Notes: generated from the sequence alone by a model not told the origin. A DNA stretch of 64,000 nt from Patescibacteria group bacterium (GCA_048538215.1 JBLYPV010000001.1:254196-318195), one strand, 5' to 3'. Positions 1 to 17,543 are shown, counted from the first letter of the stretch. Numbers and translations are program-made.

Positions 1-142
1 ATCGTACAGATGGCGACAACCTTATCACTCATGTGTACTTATTTGTTTAGAAAGTATTTTTTCATTATCTTTTCATGTGTCACATACTTACCATTATCTA
101 TTTCCTTAAAGTGCAACATAAGTGTACACTTTGGTGCAACTA

Positions 143-165
143 TTTAGGGACCGGGTCCCTAAGTG
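143..165. repeat. REP-like 23-nt palindrome (consensus ACTTAGGGACC[G/C]GGTCCCTAAGT), copy 1, overlapping the stop of the 159..554 gene
   Basis: Near-identical palindrome recurs at 29883, 30106 and 30606, flanking a RAYT gene. Confidence 0.8.
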
Positions 166-554
166 GTTTTCTGTTTCTTTTTGAAATCAATCACCGCCTT
201 TTGAGTAATGATTTTGACAATTACATTATTAGTGCTCGGTTGATTGTTGATATCATCCAGCAACATATCTGCCTTTTGGAGATGTACGAATTGCTTGTAA
301 CCATCATGGGTGAAAAATGAGATCAACTGCTCGGTAGTATCCAATAATTCTTCCCTGCCTCCATGGCGCTCGACAAAATCTCCTTGATTGACATACTTGG
401 TGGCAATAGCGGTGCGGAATGATTGATGCTCGGCTTCGTGACCAATCATCTGCTCGACCAGCGCATCCACATCTTCATTGATACTCGCGCGCAACCGAGT
501 AGAAAATTCCACTTCATCCCCTGCTGTAATAATATCTTGATAGCTGTATTTCAT
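159..554 (-). CDS. hypothetical protein (131 aa)
   Basis: Intact ORF; promoter-like TATAAT upstream; no recognisable family. Confidence 0.5.
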   Translation of the reverse strand: MKYSYQDIITAGDEVEFSTRLRASINEDVDALVEQMIGHEAEHQSFRTAIATKYVNQGDFVERHGGREELLDTTEQLISFFTHDGYKQFVHLQKADMLLDDINNQPSTNNVIVKIITQKAVIDFKKKQKTT

Positions 555-603
555 ATTTCACATTATACATATTTACACAAATACAAAACCACCTGAGAAT
601 GGT

Positions 604-631
604 TATCGTAGACCCGATGGGAGGAAGTTCG
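604..631. repeat. 26-nt motif GACCnnATGGGAGGAAGTTCGAACTT, copy 1 of 2 (second at 3139..3166)
   Basis: Direct repeat seen at two intergenic sites bracketing a 2.5-kb accessory block. Confidence 0.5.
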
Positions 632-690
632 AACTTTAATTTTACAAAACATTTGCATATAGATGTTTTGTAAAAAGTATCACCTCTACT

Positions 691-716
691 AAAAACACCC
701 ATAAGGGTGTTTTTAG
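691..716. terminator. bidirectional hairpin terminator (AAAACACCC-ATAA-GGGTGTTTT)
   Basis: Stem-loop with flanking A/T runs downstream of the 755..1450 gene. Confidence 0.6.
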
Positions 717-754
717 ATTTTTCTTGAGCATAACAATGCTTGTGTATGATTCTA

Positions 755-1450
755 TTATAACCCTACAGCGTTAACTCCATACTCTGCCTGTGCTTGAGTG
801 TAACCCTCGAATTTAAGTTGATCTATTAGACCACCCCTCGAAAAAGCTGATTGGTCTAGATATGTTTCAGCTGATTTTGCAGCTTGCTCATTCCAGTTTG
901 CCCCAGAATTATCTGCTCCGTAAACAGCATCAGCATTTGAGAATTGTTCAAATTCTAGTTGTTCAATCAATCCCTCACGAGAGAAAGCCATATTATCTAG
1001 ATACGCTTTTGCACTTCTGACTGCGTTTCTTTGGCTCACCGTCTCACCTGGTTGAGAATTATTATTTGATTCATTAGCTTGTTGGGTTTCAGATGGTGTA
1101 GTTGACACCTGATTATCCTCTTGCTCATCTACTGTGTTTTCAACTACAGTTTCAGCATCAGATTCTTCTTGAGTATTATTACTCATTTCTGTATCATTTT
1201 CTTGCTCGGGTTGTTCAGATTGTTCTTGCTCGTTAGTGGCAACTTCATTCGTTTGATTAGATTCTTCGTTTTTATCTTCAGACACTGGCATCAGTATAAT
1301 TATCGCTAGTGATGCTATTCCAAAAATTGTTCCCACTCCTTTACGAGTAGCCCAATTGCCCAATAGTTTCGAGAATACGCTTGGCTTGATCAAGCCCACA
1401 ATTAATGCACCTAGTGATAATATGAATAAAAAAGCTAGTAAGTTCGCCAT
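755..1450 (-). CDS. Ltp-family (phage superinfection-exclusion lipoprotein-like) repeat protein with N-terminal TM helix and acidic low-complexity linker
   Basis: Two tandem C-terminal repeats (NAVRSAKAYLDNMAFSREGLIEQLEFEQFS / AAKSAETYLDQSAFSRGGLIDQLKFEGYT) matching the Ltp repeat consensus; N-terminal hydrophobic helix. Confidence 0.7.
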   Translation of the reverse strand: MANLLAFLFILSLGALIVGLIKPSVFSKLLGNWATRKGVGTIFGIASLAIIILMPVSEDKNEESNQTNEVATNEQEQSEQPEQENDTEMSNNTQEESDAETVVENTVDEQEDNQVSTTPSETQQANESNNNSQPGETVSQRNAVRSAKAYLDNMAFSREGLIEQLEFEQFSNADAVYGADNSGANWNEQAAKSAETYLDQSAFSRGGLIDQLKFEGYTQAQAEYGVNAVGL

Positions 1451-1675
1451 AATTTTGTTTTATTTATGATTAATAATCTAACTATACAGGTTCGCAACAC
1501 TTTTTTCAAAATTATCTCCCACCTGTACTCGTACTAGTTCAATACCTGCTTGCTCGCAAATACGTAGTTTTCTCTATTAGTTTTTGCATAAGTGCAATCT
1601 ATAATTCTTCTGATACACTAAAGTGAGAATAAGATTATATAAGGACACCAAATTTATAAAATTAATATAAAGTTT

Positions 1676-2152
1676 ATGTTTTCAAAAAAAATATCAGAGA
1701 AAGATTGTACCAATCAGATAGCCCAAGCTATAGTGGACATAGTAGACGAATCTGTTGAAGATGAATCACATCCATTATATGAAGTTGTTGACAGAAAGGG
1801 TCAATTACTACTATTACTTCATATGCATTACATGGCATTAAGGGCAACTCAACAAGAATATTTAATATCGGGTTTGTTTTCTCATGTTGTTAATATTGAA
1901 TATCAACCAGACAACAAAGAAAACGCAATTGAGCTGGTAGAAAAAGTGAACGAACAAATCGAAGAGCTATACGAGAACAGTTTTGATGACGACGACAGGC
2001 TCGACTTAGTACTTTTATCTACTAAATTTGCATTAGTACATGTTGATGACGATATAGTTTCACAAATGATTGTTCTCAATTATATAAATGGTGTATGTCC
2101 AGAAATATTTGAATCAATGGGAGAGATAAAAGCAAATGTAGAAATTGTATAG
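1676..2152 (+). CDS. hypothetical acidic protein (158 aa)
   Basis: Intact ORF; no recognisable family. Confidence 0.5.
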   Translation: MFSKKISEKDCTNQIAQAIVDIVDESVEDESHPLYEVVDRKGQLLLLLHMHYMALRATQQEYLISGLFSHVVNIEYQPDNKENAIELVEKVNEQIEELYENSFDDDDRLDLVLLSTKFALVHVDDDIVSQMIVLNYINGVCPEIFESMGEIKANVEIV

Positions 2153-2154
2153 TT

Positions 2155-2313
2155 ATGATTATTAATATACTAGTGGCAATAATAGTTGGAGTTATTCTAG
2201 GAATAACAGGGGCAAAAGGAGGTTGGGTGGTGTTCTTTATGCTTTTTTCGATACTTGTAGTAGGTCCTTTTATTAACTATTTAATAAAACACTGGAATGA
2301 CCCAACTATATAA
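2155..2313 (+). CDS. small hydrophobic membrane protein (52 aa)
   Basis: ATG overlaps stop of upstream gene (TAGTTATG); two predicted TM segments; not in ORF track (<60 aa). Confidence 0.4.
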   Translation: MIINILVAIIVGVILGITGAKGGWVVFFMLFSILVVGPFINYLIKHWNDPTI

Positions 2314-2322
2314 ATATATATT

Positions 2323-2475
2323 ATGAACGATTTACTTTTCATGCTACTTGGCATGCCGCTATTATTTGCTATTTATTGCTTGGTGCCAGAGAAGTATAGC
2401 GGAACTAGTTGGTTTGCAATTAGTTTTTGGATTTTCGGTTGCATTTTCTCAATAATTATTTTTGGAAGGGTATGA
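2323..2475 (+). CDS. small hydrophobic membrane protein (50 aa)
   Basis: Short ORF directly after previous one, strongly hydrophobic. Confidence 0.35.
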   Translation: MNDLLFMLLGMPLLFAIYCLVPEKYSGTSWFAISFWIFGCIFSIIIFGRV

Positions 2476-2490
2476 TTAGCATAATTTGTT

Positions 2491-3000
2491 TTACTTGCAA
2501 TTCAAAACATTACCCACTAGTACTTGTATTAGCTCAATCCCAGCTTGTTCGCAAATACGGTCTTTCTTGTTGTCGGAATCTTTTTGCTTGTCTCCGTTGT
2601 GTGAGTAGCCATCGAGTTCGATAGCTTTCACTACTTCTCCAGAGCTTTTATCTACGAGTACAAAATCAATATGCCGAGATCGAATGGAGTTTCGTTTTAC
2701 TCTTTTGGTCTGCCAATCAAGTGTTGGTTTCACCTGTACAATATCCTCCAGCCTCACTTTTGAGAATAAGTAGTATTTACCCTTATTTTGTTTTTCCAGT
2801 TCAGAAAAAAATATGTATTCTGACTTAGTAAAAAATTTACCACGAGCTTCGTAATAACTGACGAGTTGATCTTTTTGTTTCTGTTCTTTATTTGAATTTT
2901 TATTTACCAAAACAATTGTCGCAAGAATCAAAAGTAAAACTGGCACAACTGTTACAAGTAAAGCCAAGACAATCAAGAAAAAATTAGTGAGTGCTTCCAT
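2491..3000 (-). CDS. DUF2726-domain protein (PD-(D/E)xK nuclease-like) with N-terminal TM helix
   Basis: C-terminal motif RHIDFVLVDK...AIELDGYSH...RICEQAGIELIQV matches DUF2726 pattern; N-terminal hydrophobic segment. Confidence 0.6.
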   Translation of the reverse strand: MEALTNFFLIVLALLVTVVPVLLLILATIVLVNKNSNKEQKQKDQLVSYYEARGKFFTKSEYIFFSELEKQNKGKYYLFSKVRLEDIVQVKPTLDWQTKRVKRNSIRSRHIDFVLVDKSSGEVVKAIELDGYSHNGDKQKDSDNKKDRICEQAGIELIQVLVGNVLNCK

Positions 3001-3138
3001 GTATGTATATTATACTAGCATATAACATTTATATTCTTTGTATAGAAATATACATCAGTACAACGTCGGCTTAGACCCGACACGCAATGATTCACTCTAC
3101 CCAAATAAAAAGACAGCCTCTAGTGCCTGTTTTTTGTT

Positions 3139-3166
3139 GTGGACCTTATGGGAGGAAGTTCGAACT
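3139..3166. repeat. 26-nt motif GACCnnATGGGAGGAAGTTCGAACTT, copy 2
   Basis: Matches 604..631 at 24/26 positions. Confidence 0.5.
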
Positions 3167-3274
3167 TATCATCTATAAACTATATATGTTTGACATATAA
3201 ATACTTTTATTATAATCTAGCCCATCTAGGAATATCTCCTAGTCAAACGAAATACACAATCAGGAGAACGTGTA

Positions 3275-3499
3275 ATGCCCAGCAAAAACAGATCTTTCCG
3301 CTTCGGTGTGCCCGACGACAAGTTCAAGAAGAGCAACTGGTCGAAGAACAATCCGAAGACCTGCGTCGAGGTCGCTTCCGTCGACGAAGGCGTCGCCGTG
3401 CGTGACAGCAAGGACCCGGACAAGGGTGCTCTTTACTTCACCCACGCTGAATGGTCGGCCTTCACTGCTGGCGTCAAGGACGGCGAGTTCGACTACTAA
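3275..3499 (+). CDS. DUF397 domain protein (actinobacterial-type), GC-rich foreign gene
   Basis: Sequence ...CVEVASVDEGVAVRDSKDPDKGALYFTHAEWSAFTAGVKDGEFDY matches the Streptomyces DUF397 consensus; about 60% GC in an AT-rich context; AGGAGA RBS 8 nt upstream. Confidence 0.8.
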   Translation: MPSKNRSFRFGVPDDKFKKSNWSKNNPKTCVEVASVDEGVAVRDSKDPDKGALYFTHAEWSAFTAGVKDGEFDY

Positions 3500-3522
3500 C
3501 CTTGGTCGAAGTCGAATCAATC

Positions 3523-3556
3523 GAGCGGCGGAAACTCTCCGCCGCTCTTTATTTTC
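3523..3556 (+). terminator. rho-independent terminator (GAGCGGCGG-AAACTCT-CCGCCGCTC + T run)
   Basis: GC hairpin followed by TTTATTTTC directly after the DUF397 gene. Confidence 0.75.
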
Positions 3557-3569
3557 TAAATACAATTTT

Positions 3570-4055
3570 ATGCAAAGACATTTATACATCATTCCCGGCC
3601 TTGGAGATACCCCTCATGAGTCATCATACGAAGGTATTGCTTCTAAGGCTCAAAACCTAGGATATACAATTCACCCAATTGAAATTGATTGGAGTAAGCC
3701 TTTGTCTTTGCAAAAATTTTCAGTAGAACAAAACGCTACTATATTTGGTTTTTCTCTTGGGGCATTACTGGCTCATCTTATTGCACAAGAATCTCCAGTA
3801 GAACATATCATTCTTGCTTCGATGACTCCGTTTTATAGCTTTACTGATCCTGAGATTAAACAAGCTCTTGTTGAACTCCTTGGTAAAGATTTTGTCGAAG
3901 ACTTAGAACAAAATCTGCAAGGTACAAATCAGGCAAAGAAAATTACTACAATGTATGGTGATCAAGAAGAGGAAGATGCAGATGTTTTAGTACCAGATAC
4001 TGAGCATGAACTGACAGATAATTATATCGAAAGTATCGTAAAACTTCTCTCGTAA
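3570..4055 (+). CDS. alpha/beta-hydrolase-like esterase/lipase (161 aa)
   Basis: GFSLG (GxSxG) nucleophile elbow; the 3306..4055 ORF is a spurious N-terminal extension across the DUF397 gene in another frame. Confidence 0.6.
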   Translation: MQRHLYIIPGLGDTPHESSYEGIASKAQNLGYTIHPIEIDWSKPLSLQKFSVEQNATIFGFSLGALLAHLIAQESPVEHIILASMTPFYSFTDPEIKQALVELLGKDFVEDLEQNLQGTNQAKKITTMYGDQEEEDADVLVPDTEHELTDNYIESIVKLLS

Positions 4056-4105
4056 AACTTTTACTAAAAATTAAAACACTCATCTGAGTGTTTTAATTTT
4101 TGCTG

Positions 4106-4178
4106 TGGACCTGACAAGACTCGAACTTGCCACCTTCCGCGTGCAAGGCGGACGCTCTACCAGATGAGCTACAGGCCC
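4106..4178 (-). tRNA. tRNA-Ala (anticodon UGC)
   Basis: Cloverleaf GGGCCTG/TA/GCTC..GAGC/ anticodon stem TCCGC-CTTGCAC-GCGGA / T-arm GCAAG-TTCGAGT-CTTGT / discriminator A. Confidence 0.85.
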
Positions 4179-4274
4179 AAATATTTTAAACACAGCGTAT
4201 GAGCACCTAATCTCCAAATTACTGTGACCAAAATTGGTACAAGCATTATATACATTTCACGAATGGATGCAATC

Positions 4275-5531
4275 CTATTTATTCAAATACTCTTGCACCA
4301 AGTATTGCCTATCTCTCGGATCAATGATTTGCTCAAGTGCTTGTTCCATATGGATAGCATGCCTCGACCCTTTTGCCAAAATATAATCACGATGTTTTAT
4401 TTCCCGCTTGAGATACGCTCCCGCTTCACGAGCAGTATCAAAGCATACAGCTTGGGTATTACTCATCCCCGCTTCCTGCGCAGCCTGACAAGCACGCTTA
4501 CCCTCCTCCCCTACCGTGAGAAAAATATCAACAATCTGCGAAGCTTGCTTACCTACTTGTATGTGAGTTTCTTCCGTATGCTCTCCAAGCTCACTCATAT
4601 CTCCAAAAAGAAATATTCGCCGTGCGGGAGCTTCTACCTGTTTAAACATTTCAAGAGCTGCTTGTACCGCAATTGGTGAAGCATTATATGAATCATCTAT
4701 AATGACGCTACTCCGAGTACCTCGCAATAATCGACTACGCCCTGGAGCTGGGTGATAATGGCGAGAAAAATTATCTACTGCCAATTCTGCATCTAATCCT
4801 AAAATACTCACTACTTCAAGCCCCAAACGATACGAGTTTATAATCGGTCTTGACCATACTCCTGGTATCCTCATAGGGAGCCATTTACCCCGATGATGGA
4901 TTTGAGCCTCGGTGCCGTATGGGGTAAAGCGCAGTTGCCGTACCGATCCTTCATTTGAAGCGATGGCTATAGATCTATCACTAAAAGATCCCAAAACCCG
5001 GGCAAGAATTATATCATCTGATGGATACACAATTACCCCATCTTCTCGAGTATAGAGCGCAAGTGATTTTTTCTCATCATACAATTGTTGCTTAGAATCA
5101 AAATATTCTAAATGTACTGGATAGCGTGCCAAGGCGGTAAAGACGGCAATATGTGGTTTAATCCACCTCGCTTGGGAAGAAATATCCCCAGGTGCTCCCG
5201 CCCCTAATTCTAAGATAAGCACTCGAGGATAAGAAAAGCTTAGTAATTGCCAAAAGGCTCGGATAATAATACCCATCCATACAAGGATGCGCAACTCCTT
5301 ATTTTGTACCTCGATACCTAAGATCGAAAGTGGTGTAGTAAGCTCACTATTTTGAGAACGAATAGTAGCTCGTACACTACGAGAGCTTGCCACAAGTGAA
5401 CGCACAACATCTTTGGTCGTTGTCTTTCCTACCGAGCCAGTAATAGCTACGATTTGGGGGTGATGAATAGCTAGCACTATACGCGCTAGTGTCCGAAAGT
5501 ACCAGGAAAAGATTTTGTATAAAATTTTCAT
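4275..5531 (-). CDS. murF: UDP-N-acetylmuramoyl-tripeptide--D-alanyl-D-alanine ligase
   Basis: ITGSVGKTTTK P-loop, DDSYNASP motif, Mur ligase architecture. Confidence 0.85.
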   Translation of the reverse strand: MKILYKIFSWYFRTLARIVLAIHHPQIVAITGSVGKTTTKDVVRSLVASSRSVRATIRSQNSELTTPLSILGIEVQNKELRILVWMGIIIRAFWQLLSFSYPRVLILELGAGAPGDISSQARWIKPHIAVFTALARYPVHLEYFDSKQQLYDEKKSLALYTREDGVIVYPSDDIILARVLGSFSDRSIAIASNEGSVRQLRFTPYGTEAQIHHRGKWLPMRIPGVWSRPIINSYRLGLEVVSILGLDAELAVDNFSRHYHPAPGRSRLLRGTRSSVIIDDSYNASPIAVQAALEMFKQVEAPARRIFLFGDMSELGEHTEETHIQVGKQASQIVDIFLTVGEEGKRACQAAQEAGMSNTQAVCFDTAREAGAYLKREIKHRDYILAKGSRHAIHMEQALEQIIDPRDRQYLVQEYLNK

Positions 5532-17335: not shown

Positions 17336-17471
17336 AGTCTATATGAATAGCCGAATTAGCTAATTCAGTCAATATCACTACATCAAATGTAGCTAGCTTA
17401 TCACTAAAAAATACGGCTAGCATAGCCGTATTCATAAGATAATTTATCCATTGCTGATATGAGAAAGAGAG

Positions 17472-17543
17472 TCCAACAGGCAGGGATCGAACCTGCGACC
17501 ACGAAGGTATAAGCTTCGCGCTCTACCACTGAGCTACTGTTGG
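17472..17543 (-). tRNA. tRNA with anticodon UAU (putative tRNA-Ile decoding AUA)
   Basis: Perfect cloverleaf CCAACAG/TA/GCTC-AGTGGTA-GAGC/G/CGAAG-CTTATAC-CTTCG/TGGTC/GCAGG-TTCGATC-CCTGC/CTGTTGG/A; anticodon loop CTTATAC puts TAT at positions 34-36. Confidence 0.7.

Follow-up and report, generated by a model that had tools for sequence, protein, structure and literature searches.

Within about 3 kb at the start of the window, by which we mean the whole stretch of 64,000 nucleotides analysed from a Patescibacteria MAG, six open reading frames are present at the positions given below: on the minus strand those of a membrane-tethered DUF2726 protein, of a surface protein with Ltp repeats and of a 131-aa protein, and on the plus strand three orphans of 158, 52 and 50 aa. 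The GC content is 28-39% across this block versus 42% across the window, and a codon model built from the remainder of the window ranks the annotated frame first for all six, with scores of 0.0-0.2 for the island genes compared to 0.26 +/- 0.08 for the backbone. The islet lies 3' of a tRNA gene, is atypical in composition and varies in content among relatives. An earlier sequence-only reading of this DNA had described the stretch as accessory, which is borne out by its low GC and its variability between strains, and had correctly called the two-Ltp-repeat TM protein and the membrane-anchored DUF2726 protein, as seen from matches to PF07553 and PF10881.

The DUF2726 gene (2491-3000, minus strand) encodes a protein of 169 aa with a single N-terminal TM helix, matching PF10881 with E=2.1e-24 and 86.1 bits (Pfam gathering score cut-off 24.7). 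Its AlphaFold model (pLDDT 88.7) displays the restriction-endonuclease-like alpha/beta core fold; no solved structure was detectable by sequence. Among 20 relatives, D112, E128, D130 and K146 do not vary and H134 is nearly invariant (>=90%); all five residues are found in the window protein and, as in the family, are predicted to form the active site. The signature HIDF...ELDG.SH...K is invariant across the 20 relatives. Set beside the Vsr/DUF559/I-Bth0305I clade of PD-(D/E)xK endonucleases, the protein differs in its fused N-terminal TM helix, in a gene accompanied by neither a methyltransferase nor a homing intron nor a partner, and in a shortened, frameshift-like C-terminal tail. A survey of PD-(D/E)xK proteins placed DUF2726 with VSR/DUF559 and entered it as 'Unknown' (PMC3424549). 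Because there is no positive N-region and a K-rich stretch follows the helix, the sequence suggests that the catalytic domain is cytoplasmic. The gene product is predicted to be a single-gene, membrane-tethered endonuclease of the Vsr/DUF559 type, and the most economical guess regarding its function is that it would cut incoming DNA at the membrane.

The C-terminus of this protein is damaged here: the tail reads …VLVGNVLNCK before the stop, as against the family tail …VQVGDDFEKSIANLYS. The 3' end of the gene is also duplicated, two diverged copies flanking an orphan segment of ~1 kb. The second copy (1443-1587, minus strand) is a remnant of the DUF2726 3' end together with the native intergenic spacer, its coding part (~1478-1571) ending in ...RICEQAGIELVRVQVGDNFEKSVANLYS and a stop; this truncated 3' end had been overlooked before. 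Based on the remnant and on the relative L009, the ancestral order was DUF2726 followed, after a gap of ~27 nt, by the gene in the slot now taken by Ltp. At present ~1 kb of opposite-strand reading frames (158, 52 and 50 aa) lies between DUF2726 and Ltp, and the pair therefore cannot be co-transcribed now; in the history we propose, it is this orphan segment that would have come to part the two genes.

The Ltp protein (755-1450, minus strand, 231 aa) has a 2-TM hairpin as its membrane anchor, then an acidic linker and a pair of Ltp repeats. PF07553 (Lipoprotein_Ltp) is matched in two stretches (E=3.3e-29), the structure 4eqq in the PDB is matched over both repeats (E=3.6e-10, residues 140-226 aligned), and full-length matches were obtained to two PHROG families annotated as 'superinfection exclusion', phrog_4980 (E ~1e-34) and phrog_15667 (E ~3e-31). 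Hydrophobic segments at residues 1-26 and 37-58 form the N-terminal hairpin; there is no cysteine in the protein, hence no lipobox, and it is not anchored as a lipoprotein. The linker of 80 aa is composed mainly of E/Q/N/S/T (19 E, 13 N, 11 Q, 10 T, 9 S), and the two repeats are identical to each other at 22 of 47 positions. A hairpin terminator (689-716) follows the gene, and the top promoter-like site of the region (TTGAAA-17-TATAGT, 1509-1481) lies ~30 nt upstream within the DUF2726 remnant, apparently as a separate promoter-like site for Ltp. Homologues number 3255, many Patescibacteria proteins sharing length and architecture with the one described here.

The exclusion protein Ltp of the Streptococcus thermophilus phage TP-J34 acts through an interaction of its repeat domain with the tape measure protein, and negative charges matter (PMC3952083). 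Both proteins have two tandem Ltp repeats (PF07553, 4eqq, PHROGs 4980/15667), a membrane anchor with a flexible spacer ahead of the repeats, and an acidic repeat domain, with a pI of 4.39 in the Patescibacteria protein. The latter differs in being anchored by a 2-TM hairpin and not by a lipidated cysteine, in having a spacer of 80 aa rich in E/Q/N and not in serine, and in belonging to a chromosomal islet without surrounding prophage. It would be a stand-alone surface protein whose linker and repeats face outwards. It may act in superinfection exclusion; given its homology with TP-J34 Ltp, it would most plausibly bind a tail or tape-measure component of an incoming phage and so keep the phage DNA from entering at the membrane.

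The segment between the two genes begins with an acidic protein of 158 aa (1676-2152, plus strand, pI 4.3), predicted to be all-helical, which has no Pfam family above threshold and no homologue but itself among 5.8 billion clusters, its structure model (pLDDT 43) not being usable. A 52-aa frame with two hydrophobic segments (2155-2313, plus strand, GRAVY 1.55) starts 3 nt past its stop and is followed by a hydrophobic frame of 50 aa with a marginal coding score (2323-2475, plus strand, GRAVY 1.37). These two tiny hydrophobic frames, as well as the 131-aa and 158-aa acidic proteins of unknown function, had already been listed in the sequence-only reading and are all there, the two acidic proteins being free of Pfam matches. 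Of the actinobacterial cassette which that reading placed beyond the block, a DUF397 gene with 57% GC and foreign codon usage (3275-3499, plus strand) was found; next to it a protein of 161 aa (3570-4055, plus strand) bears a weak likeness to alpha/beta hydrolases, with sub-threshold matches only. Both are cargo between the second of two repeats described below and tRNA-Ala(UGC) (4105-4178, minus strand), which turns its 3' end towards the variable region and serves as the hotspot anchor beside murF and ddl. The tRNA neighbourhood is the same in the relative L008 and in L059, an independent, unrelated metagenome contig.

The segment from DUF2726 to Ltp is bracketed exactly by a direct repeat of 34 nt with an exact core of 20 nt, the copies of which are spaced 2531 bp apart; there are two copies in 64 kb, with 0 expected by chance. 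Copy 1 (603-636) reads AAGTTCGAACTTCCTCCCATCGGGTCTACGATAA on the minus strand and is followed by a terminator-like hairpin, and copy 2 (3134-3167), likewise on the minus strand, reads AAGTTCGAACTTCCTCCCATAAGGTCCACAACAA, with a 3' portion that resembles the tRNA-Ala 3' end and trailer. In the alignment this element is conserved while both flanks differ, the ~30 invariant columns lying mostly within the core, and it is found at the boundary of the variable slot in the loci L001, L008, L009 and L010. It contains a 10-nt palindrome, AGTTCGAACT, which occurs twice in the window (both times in the repeat copies) and three times in L059, and 0 times in 643 kb of other loci. For the likeness to the 3' end and trailer of tRNA-Ala, shuffle p is ~0.0005 (copy 2) and 0.001 (L008), with a range of 0.0005 to 0.3 depending on the copy; the likeness is not significant in L010 and is partial (AAGTTCGA...AGGTCCACAxCAAA), the middle differing and an internal indel of 5-7 nt being needed. 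Among the six tRNAs of the window, tRNA-Ala is the best scorer for copy 1, copy 2 and L008. In predicted folds the element is unpaired, a hairpin being formed only by non-conserved downstream sequence. The sequence-only reading had taken it for a REP copy; the repeat is real, but the REP assignment was rejected, as the two copies in 64 kb are not dispersed and have no hairpin of their own. Since a terminator hairpin follows four of five copies, the element could act in RNA or in regulation and not in recombination. Probably it marks sites of cargo insertion or exchange downstream of tRNA-Ala.

Four close relatives carry a different gene downstream of DUF2726 each time, non-homologous to one another. 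In L008 the order is UvrC-Ddl-MurF-DUF6176-tRNA-Ala-DUF2726, followed by a multi-TM protein of 420 aa, a single core and the start of a homologue of the 131-aa protein, with the tRNA inverted relative to the core. The slot of L009 holds a protein that shares 61% identity with the Ltp anchor over its first 62 residues and has an unrelated ectodomain, and that of L010 a TM protein together with the abortive-infection protein HEPN_AbiU2. As a membrane protein directly follows the 3' end of DUF2726 in all four closest relatives (gaps of -20 to 28 nt), a functional link between DUF2726 and that protein may exist within this lineage. The DUF2726 gene keeps a fixed position in this narrow lineage, differing membrane or defence genes refilling the slot downstream of it. 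In L059, again beside ddl, a half-site lies 10 nt downstream of tRNA-Ala; then come a gene for 185 aa, one core, a further two genes and another core.

Taken together, the block probably belongs to an accessory islet that varies between strains and lies downstream of tRNA-Ala(UGC), next to murF/ddl, in a Patescibacteria genome of ~0.62 Mb; it would be a mosaic of small units with separate acquisitions and not one system. The hotspot linked to the tRNA would hold stand-alone accessory genes acquired one by one, in units delimited by the conserved 30-nt element carrying AGTTCGAACT. Similar to tRNA-linked genomic islands built by tandem accretion, the islet begins at the 3' side of a tRNA, has an atypical GC content, is not the same from one relative to the next, lies between direct repeats that in part resemble the tRNA 3' end, and comprises at least two units in series, both in the window and in L059. 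Unlike in such islands, no integrase is visible, the repeats are unfaithful to the tRNA 3' end yet more conserved across lineages than the flanking genes, and the units are very small (0.6-2.5 kb), often of one gene.

A bolder reading, which we regard as unlikely, is that of an integrase-less gene-capture platform downstream of tRNA-Ala(UGC) beside ddl/murF in some Patescibacteria, where small, often single-gene cassettes with exclusion, nuclease or Abi-type cargo would be serially captured, split by a 30-nt element A-GTTCGAACTTCCTCCYAT-NRGGTCCACAA that contains AGTTCGAACT and mimics tRNA-Ala from T-loop to trailer, a recombinase encoded elsewhere inserting or exchanging the cargo. No integrase or other recombinase adjoins tRNA-Ala in the window (from ddl to the window edge, the left edge of the islet lying beyond it), in L008 or in L059. 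With integron gene-cassette arrays such a platform would share the serial arrangement of small units that are unrelated to one another, often comprise one gene and have unknown or defence-like functions, and the recurring junction sequence at a fixed chromosomal position; in contrast, neither an IntI-type integrase nor an attI is seen here, the junction is an unstructured 30-mer and not an imperfect attC hairpin, and the cargo lies in both orientations. If this reading were true, the locus would exemplify a new type of cassette array, found in genomes of ultra-small size.

Functions unrelated to defence should also be considered. Patescibacteria depend on imported nucleotides, and in an auxotrophic episymbiont the DUF2726 nuclease could process imported DNA in the course of nucleotide salvage or competence. 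The variable surface proteins, Ltp among them, would serve in host attachment or in the envelope and would vary with the hosts. Consistent with this, DUF2726 is fixed in position beside housekeeping genes in the lineage, its neighbourhoods elsewhere in Patescibacteria are mostly housekeeping or mixed, it has no match among 50,697 phage records, and proteins of the Ltp architecture are common single chromosomal genes in Patescibacteria, one of them between ruvB and ribonucleotide reductase. However, the topology predicted above would put the nuclease domain in the cytoplasm and not outside; the patchy distribution of DUF2726, with at least 39 hits in a pattern-based scan of 185,579 species (one genome per species; a lower bound), is more in keeping with an accessory gene than with an essential part of an uptake system; the C-terminus is damaged here; and superinfection exclusion is the sole experimentally known role of the Ltp domain. 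We therefore hold this alternative to be rather improbable.

Equally doubtful is the view of the block as what remains, after decay, of a single mobile element (prophage or integrative element) that had inserted with tRNA-Ala as its target, with Ltp as exclusion moron and the cores as attL and attR. The repeats do bound the DUF2726-to-Ltp segment exactly and are like the tRNA-Ala 3' end, the block is low in GC, and Ltp domains occur in 145 phage records in addition to the PHROG exclusion matches. On the other hand, no phage-like gene other than Ltp was found in the window, integrase and structural genes included, and the Ltp gene is surrounded by murF, ddl, uvrC, tRNA-Ala and orphan genes, with no structural or lysogeny genes in its context. 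Moreover, DUF2726 is syntenic in L008 beside the tRNA with one core only, the slot content varies gene by gene among relatives and not by presence or absence as a unit, and the several single-gene units in a row in L059 are a better fit to serial small insertions.

The mosaic of separate units favoured here departs most clearly from the sequence-only reading in regard to the single anti-phage module which the latter proposed, and against which it named a lack of co-localisation in other genomes, together with an assignment of the proteins to housekeeping envelope functions. Nothing found assigns the block proteins to such functions; the co-occurrence analysis, in turn, was negative, with Ltp near DUF2726 at 0 of 48 loci (of which 43 are non-redundant; up to 10 kb on either side), DUF2726 near Ltp at 0 of 7 Ltp loci (3 contexts), and no recurrent neighbour family of DUF2726 beyond close relatives. 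Among PADLOC-DB v2 models no known or candidate system was matched: five of the six block proteins gave no match, and the single one obtained was weak and concerned the low-complexity Ltp linker (E=0.0019). The defence flavour itself is retained in the full-length match of Ltp to exclusion families and in HEPN_AbiU2 of the L010 slot, but not in any meaningful PADLOC match. That a surface sensor or blocker and a membrane nuclease effector would form one membrane-associated anti-phage or anti-invader system with the small membrane and acidic proteins thus appears very unlikely, even though the six genes are compact and membrane-centred within a low-GC accessory stretch, DUF2726 and the slot gene were adjacent ancestrally, a TM protein follows DUF2726 in all four closest relatives and AbiU2 occupies the L010 slot, since Ltp and DUF2726 do not co-occur in the 43 + 3 independent contexts, the downstream partner is non-homologous in each relative, more distant DUF2726 genes show no tendency towards a TM partner (4/10 versus a background of 32%), PADLOC matches are missing, the orphan genes on the opposite strand split the pair and the 131-aa gene lies past the junction repeat. 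In the census of DUF2726 neighbours, the commonest Pfam family is NUDIX (3 of 147 neighbours), and some of the more distant DUF2726 genes adjoin type IIG RM, Schlafen/AlbA_2 or NERD genes.

The 131-aa gene (159-554, minus strand) had been counted to the block, at the edge of which a repeat had been noted; the repeat is indeed at the edge, but the gene is situated beyond it and hence outside the repeat-bounded segment, a detail previously overlooked. Its mildly acidic product (pI 5.3) has no Pfam, PADLOC or NCBIfam match and one real homologue (P0227, 81% identity), and the gene probably is a neighbouring, lineage-restricted one. Residues 41-81 of the protein bear a weak likeness to one TPR-type repeat.

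In our opinion, the stretch at 143-3170 of the window is probably a mosaic: accessory genes that are independent of one another and share a variable islet. Its GC content is 28-39%, against 42% for the window, and it encodes proteins of 131 aa (159-554, minus strand), 231 aa with Ltp repeats (755-1450, minus), 158 aa (1676-2152, plus), 52 aa (2155-2313, plus), 50 aa (2323-2475, plus) and 169 aa with a DUF2726 domain (2491-3000, minus). Behind these lie a 74-aa DUF397 ORF (3275-3499, plus), a weak alpha/beta-hydrolase-like ORF (3570-4055, plus), tRNA-Ala(UGC) (4105-4178, minus) and, from 4275 on the minus strand, murF and then ddl; no RNA gene besides this tRNA was found in 1-4300 (Rfam at gathering and at E<=5; ARAGORN). 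Under a codon model trained on 39 long window genes, the annotated frame scored highest for all six block ORFs, with values (0.0-0.2) lower than the backbone mean (0.26 +/- 0.08) and a marginal coding score for the 50-aa ORF. Since the ORFs are present, their GC is atypical and their annotated frames score best, the six genes listed in the sequence-only reading are confirmed as real.

For the four most similar DUF2726 genes (72-79% identity), the positions on their contigs were determined. Among the contigs of close relatives, L008 is syntenic with the window (uvrC-ddl-murF at about 69-74% nucleotide identity). After murF it has DUF6176, tRNA-Ala, DUF2726 and a gene for a 420-aa multi-TM protein, behind which a homologue of the 131-aa gene begins. 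L009 has, 27 nt after DUF2726, a 222-aa protein that shares 61% identity with the Ltp membrane anchor over its first 62 residues, but has an unrelated ectodomain. In L010 (632-2009), genes for a 213-aa TM protein and for a HEPN_AbiU2 protein come after DUF2726. What stays fixed in this lineage is therefore DUF2726, with the next position a variable slot, for which the Ltp gene is one among several alternative fillers. Outside the closest relatives, DUF2726 is not regularly followed by a TM protein (4/10 against a background of 32%), and this was rejected as a rule. The orientation of tRNA-Ala relative to murF and DUF2726 is inverted between L008 (6907-6990) and the window (4105-4178), and the gene between murF and the tRNA differs (DUF6176 in L008); the whole murF-tRNA-DUF2726 interval is thus rearrangement-prone. 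After the junction element of L009, a 156-aa ORF (1494-1964) without a Pfam match carries a D...E.K-type motif (APDFLLHD...YLVECKYR), which suggests another PD-(D/E)xK nuclease.

The slot is closed in L001, L008, L009 and L010 by a nearly invariant element with unrelated flanks on both sides. In the window this core (consensus A-GTTCGAACTTCCTCCYAT-NRGGTCCACAA) lies at 603-636 (copy 1) and 3134-3167 (copy 2), the two sharing 20 exact nucleotides; two copies in 64 kb compare with none expected. What had been called a REP copy is thus a real repeat, but one that has no fold of its own and marks the slot boundary. The core is predicted to be unfolded and a terminator hairpin, not conserved in sequence, follows four of five copies; an RNA or regulatory element would be the alternative reading. 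The 3' part of the core is similar to the 3' end and trailer of tRNA-Ala (shuffle p ~0.0005 for copy 2, 0.001 for L008); among six tRNAs, tRNA-Ala scored highest for copy 1, copy 2 and L008. Intact or truncated canonical tRNAs were dropped as an explanation of the repeats, because no T-stem or acceptor pairing could form.

An independent instance of such a junction-element array is found in L059, a metagenome contig (Ga0115567_10000151, 1330-3123), where tRNA-Ala(UGC) is followed 10 nt downstream by a half-site (AAGTTCGAACTT), a 185-aa gene, a core, two genes and a second core, the array adjoining ddl. The window has the same layout: tRNA-Ala, the alpha/beta-hydrolase-like gene with DUF397, core 2, DUF2726 to Ltp, core 1 and the 131-aa gene. 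The 185-aa gene of L059 is P-loop-like, the genes between its cores encode 135 and 102 aa, a 52-aa DUF2256 gene follows the second core, and the array sits between ddl and a pilin gene. In the cargo of L059 and of the loci L058 and L069, Pfam gave essentially nothing, with one DUF2256 match only. A strict 25-nt core pattern had no match in viral and JGI metagenome contigs; an 18-nt pattern gave 27 metagenome loci, most of them chance matches in high-GC DNA and about 7 real relatives, and the about seven further contigs with the core from this relaxed scan are low-GC. The 18-nt pattern also had three viral matches, of which two, located in a tailed-phage-like contig at a gene junction, did not extend and were judged to be chance. 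The 10-nt palindrome AGTTCGAACT did not occur in 643 kb of other loci.

Our reading of the core is that it marks junctions in a tRNA-Ala-linked hotspot where small insertions occur. The islet is comparable to tRNA-linked islands, but is without their defining recombinases and its junction site differs in kind; it is also loosely like integron arrays, yet again lacks the defining recombinase and has another kind of junction site. That it is instead a single decayed integrative element, with the two cores as its bounds, appears unlikely: the cores do enclose the segment from DUF2726 to Ltp, but no recombinase was found next to tRNA-Ala in the window, L008 or L059, and in the relatives the genes closed off by the same core are exchanged.

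Within the mosaic, the 3' end of DUF2726 has been rearranged. A same-strand remnant just upstream of the Ltp gene encodes ...RICEQAGIELVRVQVGDNFEKSVANLYS*, the normal C-terminus of the DUF2726 family, and is followed by a spacer of the L009 type, whereas the live gene ends in ...VLVGNVLNCK*. The two 3'-end copies align (2587-2446 against 1587-1443) with 79% identity in the best 56 nt, a score of 96 against a shuffle maximum of 71, and the alignment takes in a mutated copy of the downstream start codon. The three opposite-strand orphan ORFs may have arrived in an insertion of about 1 kb that duplicated the 3' end of its target; alternatively, there may have been two tandem DUF2726 units, the second of which lost its body. 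Either way, DUF2726 and Ltp no longer form a single transcription unit. The region's best promoter-like site, TTGAAA-17-TATAGT (1481-1509, minus strand), lies inside the remnant, 30 nt upstream of Ltp, and its hexamers fall in the last codons of the intact DUF2726 genes of relatives (3' ends of L008 and L009), so the coding end of DUF2726 may always have contained a separate promoter for the slot gene. A search of the minus strand at 1600-2445 found no remains of a displaced slot gene. For the 158-aa protein, an orphan, no homologue was found (single-sequence AlphaFold model, pLDDT 43), and the 131-aa protein has one true homologue. Residues 41-81 of the latter are weakly similar to one TPR_10-type repeat of a 1693-aa STAND/TPR protein (eight repeat-wise matches, ~30% identity).

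The DUF397 gene (3275-3499, plus strand) has 57% GC in a genome of 42% GC and foreign codon usage, and a GC-rich terminator follows it (3523-3547). Its protein matches PF04149 (E=7e-19) and phrog_10815 (E=4e-23), and its only match in the phage collection is from Saccharomonospora phage PIS 136 (42.6% identity). The proposed actinobacterial cassette corresponds to this gene, which the Patescibacteria genome appears to have received recently from a high-GC actinobacterium or actinophage.

Two further descriptions in the sequence-only reading, a TM-anchored protein with two Ltp repeats and a membrane-anchored, nuclease-like DUF2726 protein, were borne out. The 231-aa protein contains two PF07553 matches (E=3.3e-29), aligns over both repeats with 4eqq, a solved structure of the Ltp family (E=3.6e-10), and is covered over nearly its full length by two PHROG superinfection exclusion families (E about 1e-34 and 3e-31). 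Its N-terminus has two hydrophobic segments with a K/R-rich loop between them, followed by an acidic 80-aa linker of E/Q/N/S/T and an acidic repeat domain (pI 4.4); cysteines are absent. It therefore shares the layout of anchor, spacer and repeat domain described for TP-J34 Ltp (PMC3952083), with a TM hairpin in place of the lipid anchor, and is a new Ltp-family member with a different anchor. By family homology it would act as a lone exclusion factor at the membrane surface. About half of the best 120 of 3255 matches are 214-244 aa long and cover the whole query at ~48-50% identity, and two of them carry Patescibacteria MAG names. By exact look-up, the protein is on record only on a 927-bp contig of a 98.9% identical strain; the same look-up gave no record for the DUF2726, 131-aa or DUF397 protein. 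An NCBI entry from a Patescibacteria group bacterium MAG has 100% identity to the DUF2726 protein.

The 169-aa protein matches PF10881 with 86 bits, shows the family-wide invariant signature HIDF...ELDG.SH...K and is modelled by AlphaFold with a pLDDT of 88.7 (20-sequence alignment). Because the N-terminus is short and uncharged in every relative, followed by a single TM helix and a linker rich in K and E, a topology with the N-terminus outside and the C-terminus inside is predicted, which would place the nuclease domain in the cytoplasm. DUF2726 is a REase-fold domain, whose function is unassigned in the literature (PMC3424549, PMC3710099). The protein is an ordinary family member fused to a TM helix and would be a solitary membrane-tethered endonuclease. 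No DUF2726 match was found in phage genomes. The Patescibacteria MAG HKST-UBA45 has two paralogues on separate contigs (L019, L020), 45% and 42% identical to the window protein.

A DUF2726 alignment scan of one genome per GTDB species gave 39 loci, to which nine metagenome loci were added (48, of which 43 non-redundant, with flanks of up to 10 kb on each side). An Ltp-repeat HMM, which recovered all known Ltp genes, found no Ltp near DUF2726 in any of the 48, and DUF2726 was likewise absent from all three contexts in which Ltp-architecture homologues from Patescibacteria were examined (PemK, Ltp, sigma factor; an island of RM/SHOCT/DUF4352/AbiV; ruvB, Ltp, ribonucleotide reductase). When all ORFs within 5 kb of DUF2726 were clustered, no family was common to its neighbours beyond close relatives. 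Among 147 neighbours at 20 Patescibacteria-type loci, classified with Pfam and PADLOC, NUDIX was the commonest family (3/147); some neighbours were defence-like (type IIG and ISP restriction enzymes, NERD, an AbiEii-like ATPase, PsyrT) and others housekeeping (including tRNA synthetase, chaperonin, ribosomal protein S7 and MscL). Roles outside defence, in the salvage of DNA and in attachment to the host, seem improbable. Least likely is the one integrated multi-gene defence module, membrane-associated and directed against phages or invaders, that had been proposed: co-localisation of its two anchored proteins was seen at none of these loci, an outcome that the sequence-only reading had itself named as refuting, and PADLOC models gave no meaningful match to the block proteins, only one weak low-complexity match. 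In locus L002 (1-6940), a 46%-identical DUF2726 follows a type IIG Eco57I-like enzyme, a Schlafen/AlbA_2 ATPase and a 309-aa unknown, with a NUDIX gene next; in L013 (1-16400), an Ltp homologue lies between two MmeI/Eco57I-type enzymes, with SHOCT, DUF4352 and AbiV.

Few phage-defence systems are recognised in Patescibacteria, whose genomes are very small, and a defence-like locus in them is for this reason of some interest. This one adds no new defence system; an exclusion-like TM-hairpin Ltp surface protein and a solitary, putatively membrane-tethered Vsr-like nuclease are independent cargo at a variable site beside tRNA-Ala. The more useful lead, and the sole feature of the locus that could lead further, is the conserved junction element, which lies between small units of cargo in two lineages that are unrelated. 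Should it prove to be a recombination site, it would reveal how these reduced genomes exchange accessory genes and would provide a simple sequence tag for locating variable or defence cargo.

Elsewhere in the window, at 17471-17543 on the minus strand, lies a tRNA-Ile with the anticodon TAT, an uncommon AUA-reading route in bacteria.
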